Assembly (NCBI GenBank): GCA_934446285.1
Contig: CAKSEI010000001.1
Coordinates: 6,498 to 70,497 of the forward strand
DNA: 64,000 bases
Source of the DNA: an uncultured Eubacteriales bacterium
GTDB taxonomy: Bacteria; Bacillota; Clostridia; Oscillospirales; CAG-272
Direction of reading: 5' to 3'
Positions 1 through 38,315 of this stretch are shown piece by piece. Numbering within the stretch: the first letter of the stretch is position 1; each line of letters starts with the position of its first letter. A program made the position numbers and the translations under genes. The notes beneath the pieces are model-generated. The model had not been told where the DNA came from, ran no database searches, and saw only the letters and a list, made by a program, of their open reading frames with translations.

Positions 1-685
1 AGTAAGCGGCGCTTCCTACCCCCGTAAGATGGTCGGTCATATCCTCTTTTCTTGCCTTCTTTCTCCTGCACAGCGTGAAAATCAACACGCATACAAGCGA
101 GAGTAAAAGTCCGCCGGCAAAGGCAAGGACGCAGAAAAGAGCAGCCGTGCGGCTGTCCGTCCGCCGCTCGCCCGCATACGAGAGAATTATCCCGTTCTTC
201 TCCTCCTCGAAAATGCTCTCTATCGCCTCGCGCAGCTCTTCTGCACTCTCCCGCGGCATGAGGTCTGTAAAGCATATCGAAAAAACTTTTTTCTCCCCGT
301 CCTCTGTCACGGTGTATACGGGAAAAGAGTCCGCGACGGAGGCTTCAACCCCGTCTGCGGCAGTCACAAGCTCAACCTGCCTGTTGTCCGCAAGCTCAGC
401 CTGTCTGTTTTCCCCGCCGGCATAAATATAAGTAAAGCGAAAATCCGTCTGCTCTTCCGCACGCGCAAGCATATCGGGTATAAGCCCCCTGTACTCGCCC
501 GCCTCGCGGTCATAATACTCTATCGGATAATTATCGGGGTTTCCCGCGACCAAAAGCGCGCCCGCCTCACCGCCGCCGCTCTTGTCCGCCGTGACAGCCC
601 GTGCGGGCACAGGGTAAACGGCGGCAACGCACATTAAGAGGGAGAGAACGCCGACAATCGTGCCCGCCGCCTTTCCCGCTCTCAT
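1..685 (-). CDS. Partial CDS (3' end at or beyond the left edge): secreted solute-binding-like protein with a C-terminal TM anchor; last gene of the riboswitch-controlled operon
   Basis: Absent from the ORF track because it runs off the window. The minus-strand ATG at 685-683 overlaps the TGA of the upstream gene (ATGA). The translation starts MRAGKAAGTIVGVLSLLMCVAAVYPVPARA (signal peptide). It continues GNPDNYPIEYYDREAGEYRGLIPDML (type-3 periplasmic-binding-protein-like) and then has a TM helix LFCVLAFAGGLLLSLVCVLIF. Confidence 0.55.
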   Translation of the reverse strand, partial: MRAGKAAGTIVGVLSLLMCVAAVYPVPARAVTADKSGGGEAGALLVAGNPDNYPIEYYDREAGEYRGLIPDMLARAEEQTDFRFTYIYAGGENRQAELADNRQVELVTAADGVEASVADSFPVYTVTEDGEKKVFSICFTDLMPRESAEELREAIESIFEEEKNGIILSYAGERRTDSRTAALFCVLAFAGGLLLSLVCVLIFTLCRRKKARKEDMTDHLTGVGSAAY

Positions 686-5855: not shown

Positions 5856-7340
5856 TTAGTTCGCATTCTCGACAAATTTCTTTATCTTGCTCTCCGCCGA
5901 ATACTGGCGCAGACTCTCAATATTTTCATCCATCCACTCTCCGCGCTCTGCGATAAAACTCTTCAGACTCTCTATCGCCTCATCATATGAGCGCGGATTT
6001 CGCCACGCGGGGGAGAGCACGTCGTTTTCCTTCTCAAAAGTATATCCCCACTTCTCAAAGTTGCGCTCAACGGCAGGTCCCAGATAGTCTATGCAGGAGT
6101 CTATATAGTCGTATAAAAATTCTTCGCTGAAAAATGTCCCACGCAGCTCACGGTAACGCTTTATGAGTGCGTCGGTGAAGTCCTCATCCTTTATCAGCAT
6201 GACGTACCAGAGGCAGTTCTGCATTTCAAAATTATTCGGCATCATCTTCGACTCCTGGTAGTTGTCGCACGCAGAGTTGAAGTCCCATATGCACATGCGG
6301 AATTTACCGCTTATATCCTTATAGATATAGGTCGAGAGCCAGCCCGCGTCGTAGTTGCATGTAAATTCGTTTATAAGAAAATAGTCGACAAATGACTGAG
6401 TATCTATGTACGTGTCATACCCGTCGCCCGGGTTGTCGAAATCGTAGGAATAGAGCGCTTTCTCAAAATCGGAGAAATCCTGACGGATCTCCTCGGCGAG
6501 CGCCGGGGTGCTCTTCCCCGAGCCGGGGTAAACGAGGTCGATTATATTCTTTGTGCGCAGGGAGTATTTTGAAAATGTGCGCAGATTTTTCTGCGGATTT
6601 GCTGCTCCGCGGTCAAGGCGCAGTACGTACCCCGAGAAGGAATTATTCTTCACGTCCACCGACATGCTTAACCGCGCACCGTCCTGCCCCGCCGTTATGC
6701 TTTCGCAGAGAACGTACAGCCCCATGTACTCGCCGTTTACCGTCACCTCGCAGAAGCGGACGTTCGGTGCCCAGTCCATTATCCCGCCCGCGATATTGTA
6801 CCACATATAGTTTCGCATAAGGCTCTTGTCAATAAAAGGTCCGTGCAGCACCCAGTCGGCGTGTGCGTCCATGCCGAGCATACTCTGTGCCCTGTCCGTG
6901 CCGTCGGAATTTATGAGATTGACGGCATATCCCGGCTTGTCAAAGGTACGGGAAGAATTTCCCCTTATGTGAATTGTTATCTCCGATGTAAGAGTCGGGG
7001 TGTCGGTCGGGTGATTGTATTTTTCCTCGCTGTCAAAGGTCGAAATCCTGCCTCTTATCCTGTCGCTGCCGTCGGCGGCGGTCGTGTAGCCCGTGACCTT
7101 GCCCTTTTCGTCCGTTATCGCCTTGCCGGGTATAGTCTCCTGAGTCTCTATGCTTATCACGGGAAGGTGGGTACACAGCTCGCCCTCGGAGTGCCGGGTA
7201 GTGCACGCCTGCTTTGCGGGGGCATCTTTATGCTGCTCATATCTGCCCTTATCCGCATTTCCGAATATCATCTGCCAATCAAGCAGCCCGACAAGCAGAG
7301 CTCCGCAGAGTGCGGCAAGTCCTATCGCCTTATATTTCAT
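5856..7340 (-). CDS. cotH: CotH family protein (atypical protein kinase fold), secreted or anchored
   Basis: 494 aa with a signal anchor. CotH-typical strings are FIDKSLMRNYMWYN, GEYMGLYVLCE, FVDYFLINEFTCNYDAGWLSTYIYKD and CIWDFNSACDNY. Confidence 0.8.
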   Translation of the reverse strand: MKYKAIGLAALCGALLVGLLDWQMIFGNADKGRYEQHKDAPAKQACTTRHSEGELCTHLPVISIETQETIPGKAITDEKGKVTGYTTAADGSDRIRGRISTFDSEEKYNHPTDTPTLTSEITIHIRGNSSRTFDKPGYAVNLINSDGTDRAQSMLGMDAHADWVLHGPFIDKSLMRNYMWYNIAGGIMDWAPNVRFCEVTVNGEYMGLYVLCESITAGQDGARLSMSVDVKNNSFSGYVLRLDRGAANPQKNLRTFSKYSLRTKNIIDLVYPGSGKSTPALAEEIRQDFSDFEKALYSYDFDNPGDGYDTYIDTQSFVDYFLINEFTCNYDAGWLSTYIYKDISGKFRMCIWDFNSACDNYQESKMMPNNFEMQNCLWYVMLIKDEDFTDALIKRYRELRGTFFSEEFLYDYIDSCIDYLGPAVERNFEKWGYTFEKENDVLSPAWRNPRSYDEAIESLKSFIAERGEWMDENIESLRQYSAESKIKKFVENAN

Positions 7341-7371
7341 GTGTACCTCCTCCCGTTTTTTTAAAAACTTT

Positions 7372-8805
7372 TTATCTCTCGTCGTGATCCTGCGCCTCGT
7401 CGAGGTAGCTCGAGAGCGGTGTACCCGTCATGCGCGGAAGTCTGCGCAGCACGGCGGACCTCGGGTTCGCGCCCGCACCGTAGACAAAATAATTTGAAAG
7501 AGTCTTGCGCTCCGCTGGGTCGTCCCCGCCGAGCAGCAGCTTATAGCCTGCCCTTACCCACGCCCTGTCCGCCGTCACCGTGCGTTTTGAATAAGGATAT
7601 GCCATGGCTCGTGTAGTCTTTCCGATATGCTCGCGCATATTGCCGTTAAACGCAGCGAAATCCGCCTGAGCCGCAGGCAGAAACGTATCAAAGGTATCGT
7701 CGGGCGCGGTGTTCGCTCCCTGACGGTTTTCATGCGAAAAGACGTGCATGGATTGAGTATGGCTTATCATCTCGACCGCGCCCGTCTCCGACATCTCCGC
7801 TATCTCGCTCCACGTGCAGAAGGGAGCGGCGCTCTTATCCCTTGCCTCGGTATTGTCCGTGGCGGAGTCTATCTCATACCCGATAAGCGCAAGCGACATG
7901 GTCATACCGTATTTCTTCAACAACGGATATGCATTTTTATACACTCCGTATTTGCCGTCGTCGGCGGTAAGAAGTATAGGTCGCGCCGGCAGCTCGGCTT
8001 TTCCCTCCATGGCATCAATCAGCTGCTCAGCCGTCACGGTCGTATAGCCGCTGCTCTTTAACCATATAAGGTCTTCTTCAAATTCGCTCTGCCATATGGC
8101 ATATTCATCAAAGGCTATGCCCGAGGCGATATCCTCCTCCGTTACGAACTCATGATACATTATAACGGGCACGCGAAAGACCGAGCGCGCATTTCTGCCC
8201 GTCGGCACGGGGCTTGATGCGGCGGAGCGTTCCTCTCCGCGCACGGCGCTTACCCTATAGTAATATTCGTCTCCGTAGGCCTCCTCATCGTAAAAGACAT
8301 TATCCTCCGTGCTGCCCGCCGTCTCGTATGTTCCGTCCACGTCAGGGCAGCGCTCGACCTCATAGGTGCAGTCCTTATCGGGGGAAGAAATCATTACGGC
8401 GTTCGTATACCTGTCCATCTTCGTCACCGACGTTATCGAGGGAACGGAAAGCACGGCGGCAGGGCTCTCGTTATCCGCGTAAATATACACCGCGCCCGAG
8501 ACCGCACCGTCCGATTCGTTTTTTCCCGCAACGGCGCAGACCTTATATACGTAGGTCATACCGCCCTTTACGCAGGAGTCGGTATACTCGCCCGCAGTCG
8601 TATCGTCGATGAATTTAAATACTCCCGTTCCTCCGTCGTCACGGTATATGCGGTAGAACTCCGCGCCCTCCGCCGTACCCCATGAAAGGGAAACGCTTTT
8701 CTCCCCCGCGTCTGCCGAAAGCAATGCCGGGACAGCGGGTACGGCGGGCGAGCAGGAAAGCAGCGCGAGCAGGAGGAGAGTAAGGAGCGGCAGAAGCTTT
8801 TTCAT
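7372..8805 (-). CDS. Lipoprotein polysaccharide deacetylase (CE4/NodB) with N-terminal Fn3-like domains
   Basis: Lipobox LLALLSC. There are two roughly 90-aa Fn3-like segments (SWGTAEGAEFYRIYR; YEVERC). The NodB motifs are VIMYHEF, LLTADDGKYG and ISHTQSMH. Confidence 0.8.
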   Translation of the reverse strand: MKKLLPLLTLLLLALLSCSPAVPAVPALLSADAGEKSVSLSWGTAEGAEFYRIYRDDGGTGVFKFIDDTTAGEYTDSCVKGGMTYVYKVCAVAGKNESDGAVSGAVYIYADNESPAAVLSVPSITSVTKMDRYTNAVMISSPDKDCTYEVERCPDVDGTYETAGSTEDNVFYDEEAYGDEYYYRVSAVRGEERSAASSPVPTGRNARSVFRVPVIMYHEFVTEEDIASGIAFDEYAIWQSEFEEDLIWLKSSGYTTVTAEQLIDAMEGKAELPARPILLTADDGKYGVYKNAYPLLKKYGMTMSLALIGYEIDSATDNTEARDKSAAPFCTWSEIAEMSETGAVEMISHTQSMHVFSHENRQGANTAPDDTFDTFLPAAQADFAAFNGNMREHIGKTTRAMAYPYSKRTVTADRAWVRAGYKLLLGGDDPAERKTLSNYFVYGAGANPRSAVLRRLPRMTGTPLSSYLDEAQDHDER

Positions 8806-9483
8806 TCAGTTTGAAACCTCGTCGTTCTGCATAACGGTATTGACATACTCGACGCCGCCTATCCTGTATATGCTGTCGGAAATATTGTTTTCGCTCTTTT
8901 CGGCGCGGCGCAGCATTTTCTGCGTCAGCTCGTATATAAGCTCGACCGAGCCCTCGGTCGTATTCTCCACGCGCAGAGCCGCTTTGCCGCGGAAGAGCTT
9001 ATAGACCTGTGCCTTTATGAGCGGCATCTTTGCCCTGTCCGCGCGGATGATGAAAAGTATTCTGTTATCGCTCTTTATGCAGCCGAGCACGAATATAACA
9101 ATAAAAGTCACGCAGCTGCCGACCGAGGCGACAAGATAGTCGCCCACTCCGCAGCATATGCCGACGATTATCGCCCAGAATATGTATACGGTGTCGCGCG
9201 AATCCTTTACCGCCGTTCTGAAACGGACTATCGAGAGCGCACCGACCATACCGAGGGAGAGCGCAAGATTATTTCCTATGACGGTCATGACCGTGCCCGT
9301 AAGCACGGTGAGAATGACCAGCGAGGAATTGAACTTCTTGCTGTATATCGTTCCCCTGTGAGAAATGGCATAGGAAATGAAGATGAAAAATCCGAGGGCT
9401 GCGGCAGCCGAGATGTTCATGAATATCTGCTGCCACGTCATGTCGCTCGGGTTAGTGAAAAGGCTGTATATTTTCTCTCTCAT
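8806..9483 (-). CDS. DUF4956 family integral membrane protein
   Basis: 225 aa with four or more TM helices, followed by LSIVRFRTAVKDSRDTVYIFWAI (the DUF4956 signature as I remember it). It directly abuts the next gene (TGAATG). Confidence 0.7.
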   Translation of the reverse strand: MREKIYSLFTNPSDMTWQQIFMNISAAAALGFFIFISYAISHRGTIYSKKFNSSLVILTVLTGTVMTVIGNNLALSLGMVGALSIVRFRTAVKDSRDTVYIFWAIIVGICCGVGDYLVASVGSCVTFIVIFVLGCIKSDNRILFIIRADRAKMPLIKAQVYKLFRGKAALRVENTTEGSVELIYELTQKMLRRAEKSENNISDSIYRIGGVEYVNTVMQNDEVSN

Positions 9484-9496
9484 TGTTTTTCTTCCT

Positions 9497-10195
9497 TTAT
9501 AACAGTCTCGTGAGATATCCGTCTCTGCGGGCGAGCACGTATTTGCTCACCGAAATCTCCGCGCGGTCGACGGGGTTGATAAGGCGGCGTATATAGTCGA
9601 GCAGAAATCCGTTGTACTTGACTTCGAGCACGGTATTCTGCGCGGACAGCACGGGTATCATATTAAGCTCGGGGTCGAAGAGTGCGAAGCTGCTCTCGGT
9701 CGACCTGATATCAGAGTCAAGGGTTATCCTTATGCGGTTTTCCTTTGCGATAAACGCCTTTCGGTTGTACTCAACGATTGTTTTCGGCAGATAGCACAGC
9801 CTGTGCATAAGCCCGTAGCACTCGGCGGCGAAGGGCTCGGAATACCCGAGCAGCGGGGAGTAATCGCCGCGCGTGAGCCGCTGCGCATCGGGGCGCATCA
9901 GGCGCAGCGAGCGCTTGAGCTGATTTGACCCCTGCTTTTGTTTTATCTCAAGCATGGCGAAATCCGAGAGCGTGTCGTAGCAGCGCAGACGAATCTTCCG
10001 GCGCGTCTCCGTCCCCGCGAGCTTGTCGAAATAGTCTCCGTCGTACAGGGTATCGAAATAGAGCGAGCGTATCATATACCCGCGTGAGCCGTTGTGCGGG
10101 TCGGGTGCGAGCACCTGCCCGAGCCGCCTCTCAAGGGAAGCTGCCTCGTCCGCGCGCAAAAGAAACTTCTTTTCCTCGCGCAATACACTGTTCAA
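9497..10195 (-). CDS. VTC-domain (triphosphate tunnel metalloenzyme / polyphosphate-polymerase-like) protein
   Basis: 232 aa. Alternating charged beta-strand motifs typical of TTM/VTC: EEKKFLL, YMIRSLYFDT, RRKIRLRCY, LEIKQKQG and VLEVKYNG. TTG start with a GGGGGTG RBS. Confidence 0.75.
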   Translation of the reverse strand: MNSVLREEKKFLLRADEAASLERRLGQVLAPDPHNGSRGYMIRSLYFDTLYDGDYFDKLAGTETRRKIRLRCYDTLSDFAMLEIKQKQGSNQLKRSLRLMRPDAQRLTRGDYSPLLGYSEPFAAECYGLMHRLCYLPKTIVEYNRKAFIAKENRIRITLDSDIRSTESSFALFDPELNMIPVLSAQNTVLEVKYNGFLLDYIRRLINPVDRAEISVSKYVLARRDGYLTRLL

Positions 10196-10211: not shown

Positions 10212-10253
10212 AAAACAAAAAGACCGACCGCCTCATAAAAGAAGTGCGGTCAG
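10212..10253 (-). terminator. Intrinsic terminator forming the riboswitch expression platform
   Basis: The minus-strand RNA reads CUGACCGC-(14 nt)-GCGGUCGG followed by UCUUUUUGUUUU. It sits between the aptamer and the RBS of the VTC gene. Confidence 0.6.
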
Positions 10254-10332
10254 TCGATCATACGGTAAAACCGTTTAGACACTAAACTTTGCGTCCCTGC
10301 CTTTCGACAGGTTTGCCCGAAATACCCCGATT
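10254..10332 (-). promoter_or_regulatory. c-di-GMP-I (GEMM-I) riboswitch aptamer
   Basis: The minus-strand RNA reads GGGCAAACCUGUCGAAAGGCAGGGACGCAAAG. Its conserved positions match the remembered Vc2 aptamer GGGCAAACCAUUCGAAAGAGUGGGACGCAAAG. The downstream CUAAAC...GUAUG resembles the tetraloop-receptor halves. The P2 fold could not be fully verified by eye. Confidence 0.75.
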
Positions 10333-10340
10333 TTACGCTT

Positions 10341-10370
10341 ATTATACCACATCTGTCCGCAAAAAGTCAA
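10341..10370 (-). promoter_or_regulatory. SigA-type promoter of the riboswitch operon
   Basis: Minus strand: TTGACT (10370-10365), an 18-nt spacer, then TGgTATAAT (extended -10; hexamer 10346-10341). Confidence 0.6.
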
Positions 10371-10683: not shown

Positions 10684-12447
10684 TTGAAGAAAAACAGATT
10701 TTTATTCCTTTTGAAGCCGTTTTTCAAATACGGCAAAGGATATTTTCTGATAATGCTTATACTGCCCGTCATATGCAATGCGGTTTCCATACTCGTCTCC
10801 GTATCGATGGACAAGCAGATAATCGACTCCATAATCGCGGGAAACGGCTTTGTATATACGATAAAAACGGCGCTTTTCTGGGAGGCACTCTTTGTTGGAG
10901 TTTTCATCGCCGACTCCTTTATCACGCTTAATCTGCAGAATGTTAATTACTACAAAATCACCTCGAAAATAACGGAGGATATCTATGATAAAGCTCTGCA
11001 CACCGATGTTGCAAACACGGATTTGCCGGGCTTTTACGACTCATATTCCTATACCGTAAGAGAATATCCGGGTCTTTCCCACGCAGCCCTCACGACTCTT
11101 TCTCAGATATGCGTCTCGGTTGTCGGCGTGGCTACGGTTTTCTCCGCCGTATCGTACCTGAGTTGGTTTGCCGTCCTGCTTACCGCGCTCTATGCGCTGA
11201 CAACAATTCCGCTCGACAGAAAAACAAGCGAGCTGTCCGCAGAAAGGCGCGAACAGATGAACTCCGCCTCCCGACGGCTCGGGTATATTCAAAAGCTGTT
11301 TTATCAGAAGGAATATCTCTTCCCGTTCAGAATAACCGATTTCAGACGGCACGTGCTGCGGGATTTTCATGAGACTTATGAGAAAATAACATCTATCCAA
11401 AAGGAAAAAAATCTTAAGCTTTGTCTGATAACCGTTTTTCAGACCGTATATGCCCGCGCGATAACGCTCGTGATAATGGGCATATACATTCATCTCATAA
11501 TTTCCGGCAAGCTGTCAATCGGTTCTTTTGTCGCGGTGATGTCGGCGACAAAAATCTTAAGGAGCATATTTCACAATTTCGCCGGTCACTACAGAAAGAT
11601 ACGCGAGCTGTGCCTATCGACAAACAAGATGTACGACTTCTTCAATGTTACACCGACCATAGAAAAGCCGGGCGGAAAAAGTCTCGTCTCTGCCGCATCG
11701 GGCGATTTTGAATTGAAGCTCTCTCAGGTATCTTTTCACTATCCGAACTCGGACAGAGGCGTAAAAAGCATCGACCTCTGCATAAAAAGCGGGCAGAAAA
11801 CAGCAATAGTCGGAAAGAACGGCTCGGGGAAATCAACACTCGTCAAGCTGCTCCTGCGCCTTTACGCCCCCGACAGCGGCAGCATTACCCTTAATAATAT
11901 ACCTATAGAGGAATATGATATAAGCAACTACAGAAACTCTGTAGGAGTTGCGCTGCAGGACTCGCATATTTTCGCCTTTTCCGTCAGAGACAATCTGACA
12001 AGATATTGCGACGTCGCAGACTCAGAGATGCTGAATGCGCTTGAAAAGCTGGATTTAAAAAATGTATGCGAGATAAGCCGCGGCGATCTGAACAGGCAGC
12101 TGACAAGAGAGTTTTATGCGGACGGTATAGAGCTTTCCGGCGGTGAAAAGCAAAAAATCGCGATAGCGTCCGTTTTGGTGGGAATTTTTGATTTACTGAT
12201 ATTTGACGAGCCGACGAGCCAGCTCGACCCGATTTCCGAATACAATCTGAACAGCCTTATATTAAGTGAGTCAAATAAGAACGCGACGGTCATCATCTCA
12301 CACCGTCTGTCACTCGTTAAAAATGCCGACCTTATCCTCGTCATGAACGACGGGGAAATAGTCGAGCGCGGCACTCACGCCGATTTAATGCAAAAGGGAG
12401 GACTCTACCGTGAAATGTACGAAAAGCAGGCAAGGGAGTACACCTGA
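10684..12447 (+). CDS. ABC exporter, fused permease/ATPase (type I exporter half-transporter)
   Basis: 587 aa. Six-TM N-domain, Walker A GKNGSGKST, signature LSGGEKQKIAIA and Walker B LLIFDEPTS. TTG start with a GGAGGAAGAGG RBS. It looks visibly more AT-rich than its neighbours. Confidence 0.85.
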   Translation: MKKNRFLFLLKPFFKYGKGYFLIMLILPVICNAVSILVSVSMDKQIIDSIIAGNGFVYTIKTALFWEALFVGVFIADSFITLNLQNVNYYKITSKITEDIYDKALHTDVANTDLPGFYDSYSYTVREYPGLSHAALTTLSQICVSVVGVATVFSAVSYLSWFAVLLTALYALTTIPLDRKTSELSAERREQMNSASRRLGYIQKLFYQKEYLFPFRITDFRRHVLRDFHETYEKITSIQKEKNLKLCLITVFQTVYARAITLVIMGIYIHLIISGKLSIGSFVAVMSATKILRSIFHNFAGHYRKIRELCLSTNKMYDFFNVTPTIEKPGGKSLVSAASGDFELKLSQVSFHYPNSDRGVKSIDLCIKSGQKTAIVGKNGSGKSTLVKLLLRLYAPDSGSITLNNIPIEEYDISNYRNSVGVALQDSHIFAFSVRDNLTRYCDVADSEMLNALEKLDLKNVCEISRGDLNRQLTREFYADGIELSGGEKQKIAIASVLVGIFDLLIFDEPTSQLDPISEYNLNSLILSESNKNATVIISHRLSLVKNADLILVMNDGEIVERGTHADLMQKGGLYREMYEKQAREYT

Positions 12448-38164: not shown

Positions 38165-38315
38165 CTGTAACTGCTCTTTCTTCTCTCATCCGGACTGTAC
38201 CGTCGGTACGGGATTTTCACCCGTTCGGCTCTGCCCTCCTCGGCAGAGTTTGCGGACTCGGGCACTCGCGCCCTCACCGCCGGTGTGGAATTTCACCACC
38301 CCTTGAAGAATATAA
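38165..38315 (-). promoter_or_regulatory. FMN riboswitch (RFN element)
   Basis: The minus-strand RNA contains AAGGGGUGGUGAAAUUCCACACCGGCGGUGAGG...GCGAGUGCC...CCGAACGGGUGAAAAUCCCGUACCGACGGUACAGUCCGGAUGAGAGAAGAAAGA. These are the conserved RFN blocks. Confidence 0.85.

Follow-up and report, generated by a model that had tools for sequence, protein, structure and literature searches.

A VTC, DUF4956 and CotH gene trio as a candidate phosphate module at the head of a riboswitch-controlled exopolysaccharide operon

A gene trio at the head of an exopolysaccharide operon

We analysed a 64,000-nucleotide (nt) stretch of DNA from an uncultured Eubacteriales bacterium (GenBank assembly GCA_934446285.1, contig CAKSEI010000001.1, positions 6,498 to 70,497 of the forward strand), hereafter called the window, along the full length of which all coordinates below are counted. 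The window carries an exopolysaccharide (EPS) operon headed by a trio of genes for a VTC-domain protein, a DUF4956 membrane protein and a CotH kinase-like protein. The best explanation overall, to which we give a probability of about 0.4, is that the three genes are inherited together as a portable 'phosphate module' of synthase-dependent EPS loci in Gram-positive bacteria. The parts of this explanation are not equally strong. That the three genes function together as a module of EPS loci is very probable, a phosphate-transfer or polyphosphate (polyP) role that modifies or tunes the polymer stands at about even odds, and the full chain, with VTC as the maker of polyP, DUF4956 as its exporter and CotH as its user, is unlikely. 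The three genes are located as follows:

9497..10195, minus strand: VTC protein, 232 amino acids (aa), TTG start, PF09359
8806..9483, minus strand: DUF4956 protein, 225 aa, PF16316
5856..7340, minus strand: CotH, 494 aa, PF08757

All three genes are co-oriented, with a single gene, encoding a deacetylase, between DUF4956 and CotH, and VTC is the first gene 3' of a cyclic di-GMP (c-di-GMP) riboswitch. An earlier note on this DNA had described VTC and DUF4956 as the first two genes after the riboswitch with CotH following two genes later, and this account of the families, their order and the position of the riboswitch is correct.

Conservation and contexts of the trio

When one genome per species was scanned, a close relative of the VTC protein turned up in 403 genomes, all of them Clostridia (Oscillospiraceae, Ruminococcaceae, Lachnospiraceae, Acutalibacteraceae and others), and the loci of 80 of these were examined. 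The counts below give the loci with the gene over the loci with enough contig downstream of VTC:

DUF4956 after VTC: 76/76 genome loci
CotH after VTC: 70/70 genome loci
723-aa protein after VTC: 67/67 genome loci
HEAT protein after VTC: 65/65 genome loci
GT2 synthase after VTC: 61/62 genome loci
Deacetylase between DUF4956 and CotH: 12/70 genome loci

Given its presence in 12 of the 70 loci, the deacetylase is an optional insert. A second and more diverse set, of 80 metagenome loci, took a distant VTC (33-42% identity) as its anchor. DUF4956 follows VTC in 74/74 of these loci, while CotH is found in 49/57 with our own hidden Markov model (HMM) and in 50/57 once one divergent CotH recognised by Pfam is added. 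When both sets are pooled, DUF4956 follows VTC in 150/150 loci and CotH is adjacent in 120/127; hence the co-occurrence of the three families, which the earlier note had left to be checked, extends beyond this genome. Since all loci were chosen through VTC similarity, these frequencies are conditional on VTC: they tell which genes go with this VTC subfamily and not how often those genes go with VTC, the CotH family being much wider than the VTC-linked loci. The linkage of VTC, DUF4956 and CotH is far beyond chance.

The seven diverse loci in which CotH is not adjacent (L134, L140, L145, L146, L156, L164 and L171) have other neighbours. Three of them, L134 included, show a DUF4832 gene downstream, one shows a sigma-70-family gene upstream, and the last three combine a second DUF4956 with a gene of the metallo-beta-lactamase fold and a SigI/RsgI-like sigma/anti-sigma pair. 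Among the VTC proteins looked up, the most divergent, P0391, lies at a contig end, and the contigs of P0121 stop before the end of the operon.

After dereplication, the trio heads a cassette made of the 723-aa protein (p723), the HEAT protein and the GT2 synthase in 12/18 loci, and is intact at 37-43% VTC identity. In 5-6 of the 18 loci it heads a different arrangement, built on a BcsA-like GT2-PilZ synthase together with acetylation genes (MBOAT and AlgX-like) and frequently a GH5 cellulase, and this acetylated-cellulose-type context of the trio was not found in the literature searched. The loci of this type are L092, L095, L096, L100-L104 and L136. A third context has been published. Indeed, cotH, a 'poly-phosphate polymerase', DUF4956 and DUF4832 form a conserved accessory set contiguous with pel operons, which spans streptococci, clostridia and bifidobacteria (Whitfield et al. 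2020, 10.1101/768473), and SIR_1592-1594 of Streptococcus intermedius are the trio beside pel (PMC12345266). This 2025 study of S. intermedius did not find the three-gene synteny outside pel loci (PMC12345266), a statement that is contradicted by the loci described here: the trio is not confined to pel loci.

The VTC protein

The VTC protein matches PF09359 over profile positions 2-230 of 235 (134.9 bits, cutoff 23, E 4e-39) and displays zero transmembrane (TM) segments by hydropathy, as for a soluble protein. An AlphaFold2 (AF2) model built from a 143-sequence alignment (pLDDT 89.9) has yeast Vtc4 (3g3r/3g3q) as its closest structure in the PDB, with TM-scores of 0.74-0.77 and E-values of about 1e-14 to 3e-14, followed by Vtc2 and Vtc3. 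The comparison of the model with CYTH-type proteins (ygiF, AtTTM3, thiamine triphosphatase and class IV cyclase/CyaB-like proteins) gives TM-scores of 0.45-0.57 and E-values of 1e-8 to 1e-5. Profiles were needed to reach solved relatives, as single-sequence phmmer searches of the PDB with VTC and with CotH returned no match. Residues were mapped through HMM/profile alignments to Vtc4 3g3q and 5iiq:

Window VTC R6: Vtc4 R196
Window VTC K10: Vtc4 K200
Window VTC R69 and R71: Vtc4 R264 and R266
Window VTC K85: Vtc4 K281
Window VTC Y143 and R145: Vtc4 Y359 and R361
Window VTC R156: Vtc4 R373
Window VTC E191 and K193: Vtc4 E426 and K428

Among 67 representatives sharing 33-51% identity with the window VTC, each mapped residue is either invariant or conserved to at least 90%. 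In addition, S217-K218 lies at the spacing expected for Vtc4 S457-K458, a placement by spacing and not by alignment, and K218 is invariant; it may be the counterpart of Lys-458, which is the catalytic lysine of Vtc4p (PMC4641920). In yeast, VTC is inactivated by R264A/R266A/E426N (PMC9911596). Hydrolytic triphosphate tunnel metalloenzymes (TTMs) possess an acidic patch of four Glu, instead of which basic residues are found in Vtc4p (PMC4641920), and at the E-x-E position of the hydrolases the window VTC reads E191-V-K193, with K193 basic like Vtc4 K428. Judged from its residues, the tunnel appears clearly Vtc4-like. The picture of a soluble protein with a Vtc4-like tunnel drawn in the earlier note is borne out by hydropathy, by the PF09359 match and by Vtc4 as best fold match, and of the tunnel residues, among which it had named Lys, Arg and Glu for checking, the equivalents of K200, R264, R266, Y359, R361, R373 and E426 are all kept.

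The bacterial family comprises 4,456 clusters at 50% identity (E <= 1e-3), mostly of stand-alone proteins of ~230 aa. In P0328, P0354 and P0366, VTC is fused to an N-terminal polytopic membrane domain of weak TM7S3/TM198-like similarity, and these fusions tie the enzyme to the membrane independently. In cellulose-type loci, a small polytopic open reading frame overlaps the VTC start (L092:367-924, L095:9313-10008 and L096:9415-10008); compared with the fused membrane domain of P0328/P0366 it gave BLASTP E-values of 0.1-0.2, which are not significant, and Pfam returned nothing useful for it.

The DUF4956 membrane protein and CotH

The DUF4956 protein matches PF16316 with 47 bits (cutoff 30.6) and the MgtC family PF02308 with 20.6 bits, below the cutoff of 31.4. 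Hydropathy and a low-confidence AF2 model give 4-5 TM helices at about residues 17-135, most likely five between residues 17 and 133, followed by a C-terminal beta-alpha domain of ~85 aa, in line with the polytopic companion of VTC that the earlier note had described and that is present in all 150 pooled loci. DUF4956 and GT2 are the best-conserved proteins of the cassette, with a mean identity of 75%, and residues 42-123 of DUF4956 are almost invariant. According to the positive-inside rule, the loops H42/R43/K49/K50 and R87/R89/K93/R96 as well as the C-terminal domain would lie on the cytoplasmic side. When the PDB was searched with the DUF4956 profile only chance matches were obtained, with no solved relative. 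The exit of the VTC tunnel could dock at these predicted cytoplasmic parts of DUF4956, which recall the basic path of the yeast complex (PMC9911596).

CotH covers the entire PF08757 profile (positions 1-322 of 322, 199.4 bits, E 1e-58). Its N-terminus reads MKYK followed by a hydrophobic stretch of 16 residues, and hydropathy places a segment, either a signal or an anchor, at residues 8-26. The profile of the cassette CotH proteins reaches Bacillus cereus CotH 5jd9 (E 1e-3), and N329-Y-D331 and W352-D353 align with its NFD and WDYD motifs. Both D331 and D353 are invariant in 18 cassette CotH homologues; among eight homologues taken across contexts D353 is invariant and D331 is found in 7/8. 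The catalytic and metal-binding Asp of Bacillus subtilis CotH, which we take to be D228 and D251, agree with this pair in their 23-residue motif spacing. Hence both catalytic aspartates, the absence of which the earlier note had listed as refuting, are kept, and the N-terminus is that of an exported or anchored protein, in line with the signal-anchored CotH of that note. The CotH homologues of the cellulose-type loci have one more TM segment at the C-terminus, closed by INRK, and an outside-facing domain is thereby bracketed. From these features, the window CotH is a surface-exposed, kinase-like and probably active enzyme, for which no ATP source is apparent.

The riboswitch leader

The leader of the operon contains three elements:

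10341..10370, minus strand: sigma-70-type promoter, TTGACT, 18-nt spacer, TG-extended TATAAT (TGnTATAAT)
10242..10327, minus strand: c-di-GMP-I riboswitch aptamer, Rfam RF01051
10210..10255, minus strand: intrinsic terminator (expression platform), hairpin 10255..10222, U-tract to 10210

The promoter lies directly upstream of the riboswitch, matches the consensus at 11/12 and is the top site within the 10 kb scanned. With the covariance model RF01051, the aptamer scores 60.4 bits (gathering score 35) over the full model, positions 1-87. The terminator hairpin (-19.9 kcal/mol) is followed by UUUUUGUUUUC, and 14 nt of its 5' arm (GACUGACCGCACUU) fall within the aptamer match and take in the 3' strand of P2. 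Given that this arm is common to the terminator and the aptamer, the two structures are mutually exclusive, as in an ON switch; the sequence implies that high c-di-GMP would lead to read-through. An OFF switch was considered and rejected, the terminator 5' arm belonging to the ligand-stabilised stem of the aptamer.

A related leader is found 5' of VTC in 66/78 related genome loci with nhmmer, and in L005 with Rfam. Neither the more distant cassettes nor the cellulose-type loci examined showed a riboswitch; control by the riboswitch is therefore specific to this clade and not a property of the trio. In the literature searched, no paper was found that links the VTC-DUF4956-CotH cassette to a riboswitch.

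The remaining operon genes and the polymer

From the leader to the ninth gene the operon lies entirely on the minus strand, as a promoter and c-di-GMP-I riboswitch followed by nine genes. Besides the trio it contains:

7372..8805, minus strand: fn3 and polysaccharide deacetylase (PgaB/IcaB-like), lipoprotein-like, PF01522
3675..5846, minus strand: p723, TM-anchored, weakly similar to TIM-barrel enzymes of glycoside hydrolase (GH) clan A, weak PF03198
2587..3690, minus strand: membrane-anchored HEAT-repeat protein, 367 aa, PF13646
1187..2590, minus strand: processive GT2 synthase, PgaC/IcaA-like, 467 aa, PF00535, PF13641, PF13632
682..1182, minus strand: small cytoplasmic coiled-coil protein, last short gene of the cassette, coiled-coil-type matches only
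1..685, minus strand: ninth gene, 5' part, running off the window; signal peptide, SBP_bac_3-like domain and TM segment

The gaps between the genes range from -16 to +31 nt, with 13 nt between VTC and DUF4956, and the genes therefore form a single tight operon.

The synthase carries the DAD, GED and QRKRW motifs of processive enzymes and four TM segments by hydropathy, and it matches TIGR03937 (PgaC/IcaA) with E 4e-42 and 144.7 bits, the equivalog cutoff being 422.3. Likewise, the deacetylase (PF01522, E 8e-13), whose signal sequence ends in LLSC, matches TIGR03938 PgaB with E 1e-38 and 132.9 bits for an equivalog cutoff of 321.9. A hexosamine-containing beta-glycan is a reasonable guess for the polymer. 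As for p723, a weak PF03198 (GH72) match is seen in 8/18 homologues and a weak PDB match to the GH2 catalytic domain 9fz9 was obtained; there is no DUF4832 match, and no solved relative beyond these weak GH72/GH2 TIM-barrel signals. It is a large uncharacterised family of its own, part of the conserved cassette and outside the trio. The HEAT protein (PF13646, E 8e-9) has a TM segment at residues 9-27 followed by a basic stretch, and its HEAT domain is predicted to be cytoplasmic. Profile searches of the operon proteins gave no Pel-family or DUF4832 match.

A weakly conserved homologue of the coiled-coil gene is present in 29 related loci. The stop of the coiled-coil gene lies within the ninth gene, for which a weak SBP_bac_3 match was obtained; in more than 50 related loci the cassette is followed by homologues of this gene, 630-690 aa long. 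Two of these (L010:11657-13618 and L033:17955-19982) contain an EAL domain (E 1e-55) and a weak divergent GGDEF, so that by their domains the full-length relatives are sensor-GGDEF(divergent)-EAL proteins. This suggests that the ninth gene may feed back on the c-di-GMP signal that would switch the operon on.

Outside the operon, a divergent ATP-binding cassette (ABC) exporter with fused transmembrane and nucleotide-binding domains (587 aa, 10684..12447, plus strand) adjoins the operon promoter. The ABC transporter, topoisomerase and RNase J neighbours recur in contigs of Hadza gut metagenomes with identical VTC and DUF4956, and the window thus comes from an uncultured Clostridia lineage of the human gut. 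A flavin mononucleotide (FMN) riboswitch at 38174..38314, minus strand (104 bits), is unrelated to the trio.

Proposed mechanism and alternative explanations

The mechanism proposed here starts from what was observed, namely the identities and topology of the gene products, their conserved catalytic residues, the obligate synteny and the control by a riboswitch, and we infer every chemical step in it. Binding of c-di-GMP to the leader would release the terminator and allow the nine-gene operon to be read from its strong promoter, and the downstream genes would build and process a secreted beta-glycan, probably rich in hexosamine. As a first step, the soluble Vtc4-like tunnel enzyme would use a nucleoside triphosphate (NTP) at the inner face of the membrane, with a polyP chain as the most likely product. 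The MgtC-like DUF4956 protein, as obligate partner, would then transmit this product, or the effect of it, through the membrane or along it. Finally, the surface-anchored CotH kinase domain may phosphorylate a target outside the cytoplasm, which could be the nascent polymer or else a component of the matrix or wall, with an exported phosphoanhydride or scavenged ATP as donor. In its most specific form the proposal amounts to a second, PPK-independent polyP route, in which VTC docks on DUF4956 and extrudes polyP that serves as donor, or is itself attached, for a surface CotH acting on exopolysaccharide or matrix components; this form is quite unlikely.

Several points weigh against the phosphate module. 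First, we know of no protein-kinase-like fold that uses polyP as donor, and the literature searched holds no biochemical function for bacterial VTC, DUF4956 or secreted CotH. Second, the analogy with yeast VTC made in the earlier note stands as regards a dedicated membrane partner and is one of architecture, not of homology: DUF4956 is MgtC/YhiD-like and unrelated to the DUF202 channel domain of the yeast complex, and SPX is absent. The AF2 run on DUF4956, which used near-identical homologues (81-85%), reached a pLDDT of 45, and the model is too poor to reveal a pore. Third, on strand 1 the bacterial VTC family has an invariant R-x-E-x-K (E8) where Vtc4 has R-x-T-x-K (Thr-198). This E8 may derive from the acidic patch of the hydrolases and could change the chemistry, so that polymerase and hydrolase are not separable by sequence. 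Fourth, VTC-DUF4956 pairs occur with no adjacent CotH in 7/57 diverse loci; VTC-DUF4956 is therefore the obligate core and CotH a frequent client, the usual third member. In one CotH (L095:11475-12989) an Asn (NSNAG) stands at the catalytic Asp (NYDAG in the others), which may reflect a pseudokinase variant or a local misalignment. Last, in S. intermedius the deletion of VTC has no reported phenotype, deletion of the DUF4956 homologue raised Pel and deletion of CotH lowered it, with aggregation changed in opposite ways, and none of the three genes is needed for polymer synthesis. Such a pattern does not fit a simple linear VTC to DUF4956 to CotH pathway, although polyP made by PPK may mask the loss of VTC. 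Hence, while every sequence-level premise of the earlier note held and nothing that it had listed as refuting was observed, so that its hypothesis is a reasonable one, the linear chain that it drew from them poorly fits these deletions.

In a first alternative, the trio is a regulatory module. In this case the MgtC-like DUF4956 would alter ATP/phosphate homeostasis or bind the synthase, VTC would buffer local NTP, polyP or inorganic phosphate, and the output of the synthase would be tuned post-transcriptionally, with CotH as a separate control on the machinery or on a matrix protein and no polyP crossing the membrane. Salmonella MgtC lowers ATP and represses cellulose synthesis. The rise of Pel upon loss of the DUF4956 homologue is what a negative regulator would give, and the fall upon loss of CotH and the dispensability of the trio for synthesis point the same way, as do the sub-threshold MgtC match of DUF4956 and the label YhiD given to its relatives in one source. 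Furthermore, its C-terminal beta-alpha domain could sense a ligand in the manner of ACT domains (PMC12345266). However, the MgtC similarity is under the Pfam cutoff, a regulator is not expected to need a fully conserved Vtc4-type tunnel in 150/150 loci, and an extracytoplasmic kinase with intact catalytic residues would still need a phosphoryl donor outside. Taken together, a regulatory module is somewhat unlikely.

PolyP could also be the product itself. VTC and DUF4956 would then extrude it into the matrix as an anionic co-polymer or cation chelator that cross-links or neutralises the glycan, which would be cationic once deacetylated, and CotH would act independently on proteins, with extracellular ATP. 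The characterised Pel and PgaC/PgaB polymers are partly de-N-acetylated and cationic, and the polymers partnered by the trio include Pel and a PgaC/PgaB-like system. Moreover, the CotH-less pairs, found with DUF4832 or with a SigI/RsgI-like pair and a second DUF4956, imply that VTC and DUF4956 can work alone, and yeast VTC couples synthesis to translocation (PMC9911596). On the other hand, the cellulose-type trio loci should make a neutral or acetylated polymer, the deacetylase is present in only 12/70 cassettes, and the adjacency of CotH in 120/127 loci argues for a shared task, so that polyP as the end product is improbable.

It is just as doubtful that VTC is a tunnel hydrolase or cyclase (a tripolyphosphatase or NTPase) and CotH a non-catalytic protein that binds glycan or host, the trio being then a surface-adhesion and housekeeping set with no matrix phosphotransfer and CotH likened to the host-receptor-binding CotH of Mucorales. 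Most characterised TTMs are hydrolases, and AtTTM3 has the tunnel centre of Vtc4 and makes no polyP (PMC4641920); the acidic E8 on strand 1 and the CotH homologue of L095, with no catalytic Asp, would also be in keeping with this explanation. Nevertheless, both structure and profile rank Vtc4 well above the hydrolases, a Lys occupies the position of Vtc4 K428 instead of an acidic-patch Glu, K218 is invariant where the catalytic Lys-458 is expected, and the CotH aspartates are kept in nearly all homologues. Finally, chance neighbourhood or operon drift with no joint function is effectively refuted by the synteny counts, since the order VTC-DUF4956-(x)-CotH is kept at 33-43% VTC identity, in three synthase contexts and in hundreds of species.

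Significance

The synthesis of polyP in bacteria is ascribed to PPK1 and PPK2, and a VTC-type polymerase in hundreds of gut Clostridia would, if true, be a new enzyme class. An extracytoplasmic kinase of a monoderm has moreover an unsolved donor problem, as ATP is not retained outside, to which the phosphate module would give a concrete answer; it would then be the first polyP-fuelled extracellular phosphorylation system. Given that the module accompanies at least three unrelated polymers (Pel, PgaC-like/HEAT and acetylated-cellulose-type), it probably serves the biofilm matrices of Gram-positive bacteria as a general step of modification or control. Its loci include one linked to necrotic-enteritis strains of Clostridium perfringens and one Pel locus linked to abscess persistence of S. 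intermedius. Even if its role is regulatory, the obligate VTC-DUF4956 pair would be the first functional handle on DUF4956 and bacterial VTC proteins.

Comparison with known systems

The yeast VTC complex (PMC9911596, PDB 3g3q/7ytj/8i6v) and the window VTC have the tunnel fold and the catalytic tunnel residues in common, and in both a soluble catalytic domain is obligatorily paired, in some bacteria fused, with a polytopic membrane protein. In contrast, the window protein is ~19% identical to its yeast counterpart, consists of the VTC domain only, with no SPX domain and no DUF202 helices, has an MgtC-like DUF4956 as partner and aligns a Glu with Vtc4 Thr-198, and the target compartment would be the cell exterior. 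The partner itself resembles MgtC/SapB/YhiD proteins in size and layout, with an N-terminal bundle of ~5 TM helices and a small cytoplasmic alpha/beta domain, and in a weak profile similarity; unlike DUF4956, which is paired with VTC, MgtC is a regulator of F-ATPase and PhoR with no known partner tunnel enzyme.

The spore-coat CotH of Bacillus (5jd9/5jda) belongs to the same Pfam family as the window CotH and has both active-site aspartates. It acts in the mother cell, where ATP is present, on Ser-rich coat proteins, whereas the window CotH carries a signal or anchor and is encoded in a riboswitch-controlled EPS operon with no coat genes nearby. The two are remote relatives (profile E 1e-3), and no obvious Ser-rich substrate gene lies near the window CotH. 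Among polymer systems, those of poly-N-acetylglucosamine (pgaABCD and icaADBC) provide the best named relatives of the GT2 synthase (PgaC/IcaA) and of the deacetylase (PgaB/IcaB), with QxxRW in common; the window proteins are nevertheless far below the equivalog cutoffs, and HEAT and p723 are found instead of PgaD/IcaD and PgaA.

The accessory set of pel loci is closer. It is composed of the same three Pfam families, contiguous, co-oriented and attached to a synthase-dependent EPS operon, as here; its CotH is predicted to be secreted and its DUF4956 is given as ACT joined to an MgtC-like TM domain (10.1101/768473; PMC12345266). The differences are in the surroundings. The window has no PelF, PelG or PelD, and the partner is a cassette of PgaC-like GT2, HEAT and TIM-barrel-like proteins; the trio leads the operon, under a c-di-GMP-I riboswitch, while it trails in pel loci; and DUF4832, as well as the FN3 domain on CotH, is absent.

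Closest in gene order is the NELoc-2 locus of C. perfringens (CP4_0463-0468), for which the same order is tabulated (Lepp et al. 2010, PMC2879425). Its products are VTC (230 aa), 'tubulin/FtsZ' (222 aa), CotH (497 aa), a hypothetical protein (685 aa), HEAT (377 aa) and a 'chitin synthase' GT2 (466 aa), compared with 232, 225, 494, 723, 367 and 467 aa in the window, a likeness of gene tables and not of sequences. The window has in addition the deacetylase between DUF4956 and CotH and the riboswitch leader, while in NELoc-2 alone the VTC-DUF4956 pair is present twice, around a resolvase, and a SigI-type sigma factor lies upstream. The genes annotated there as 'tubulin/FtsZ, GTPase' (CP4_0461 and CP4_0464; 222-226 aa, cytoplasmic membrane) stand at the DUF4956 position (PMC2879425); they are almost certainly DUF4956 proteins, and the published annotation looks wrong.

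The trio is hence already published, and the window represents another member of a described, functionally uncharacterised module. To this module the present analysis adds its association with at least three synthase types, its invariant VTC-DUF4956 core and its family-wide catalytic residues and, for a gut Clostridia clade, the placement of the whole cassette under a predicted ON-type c-di-GMP riboswitch and its ending in a sensor-EAL gene.

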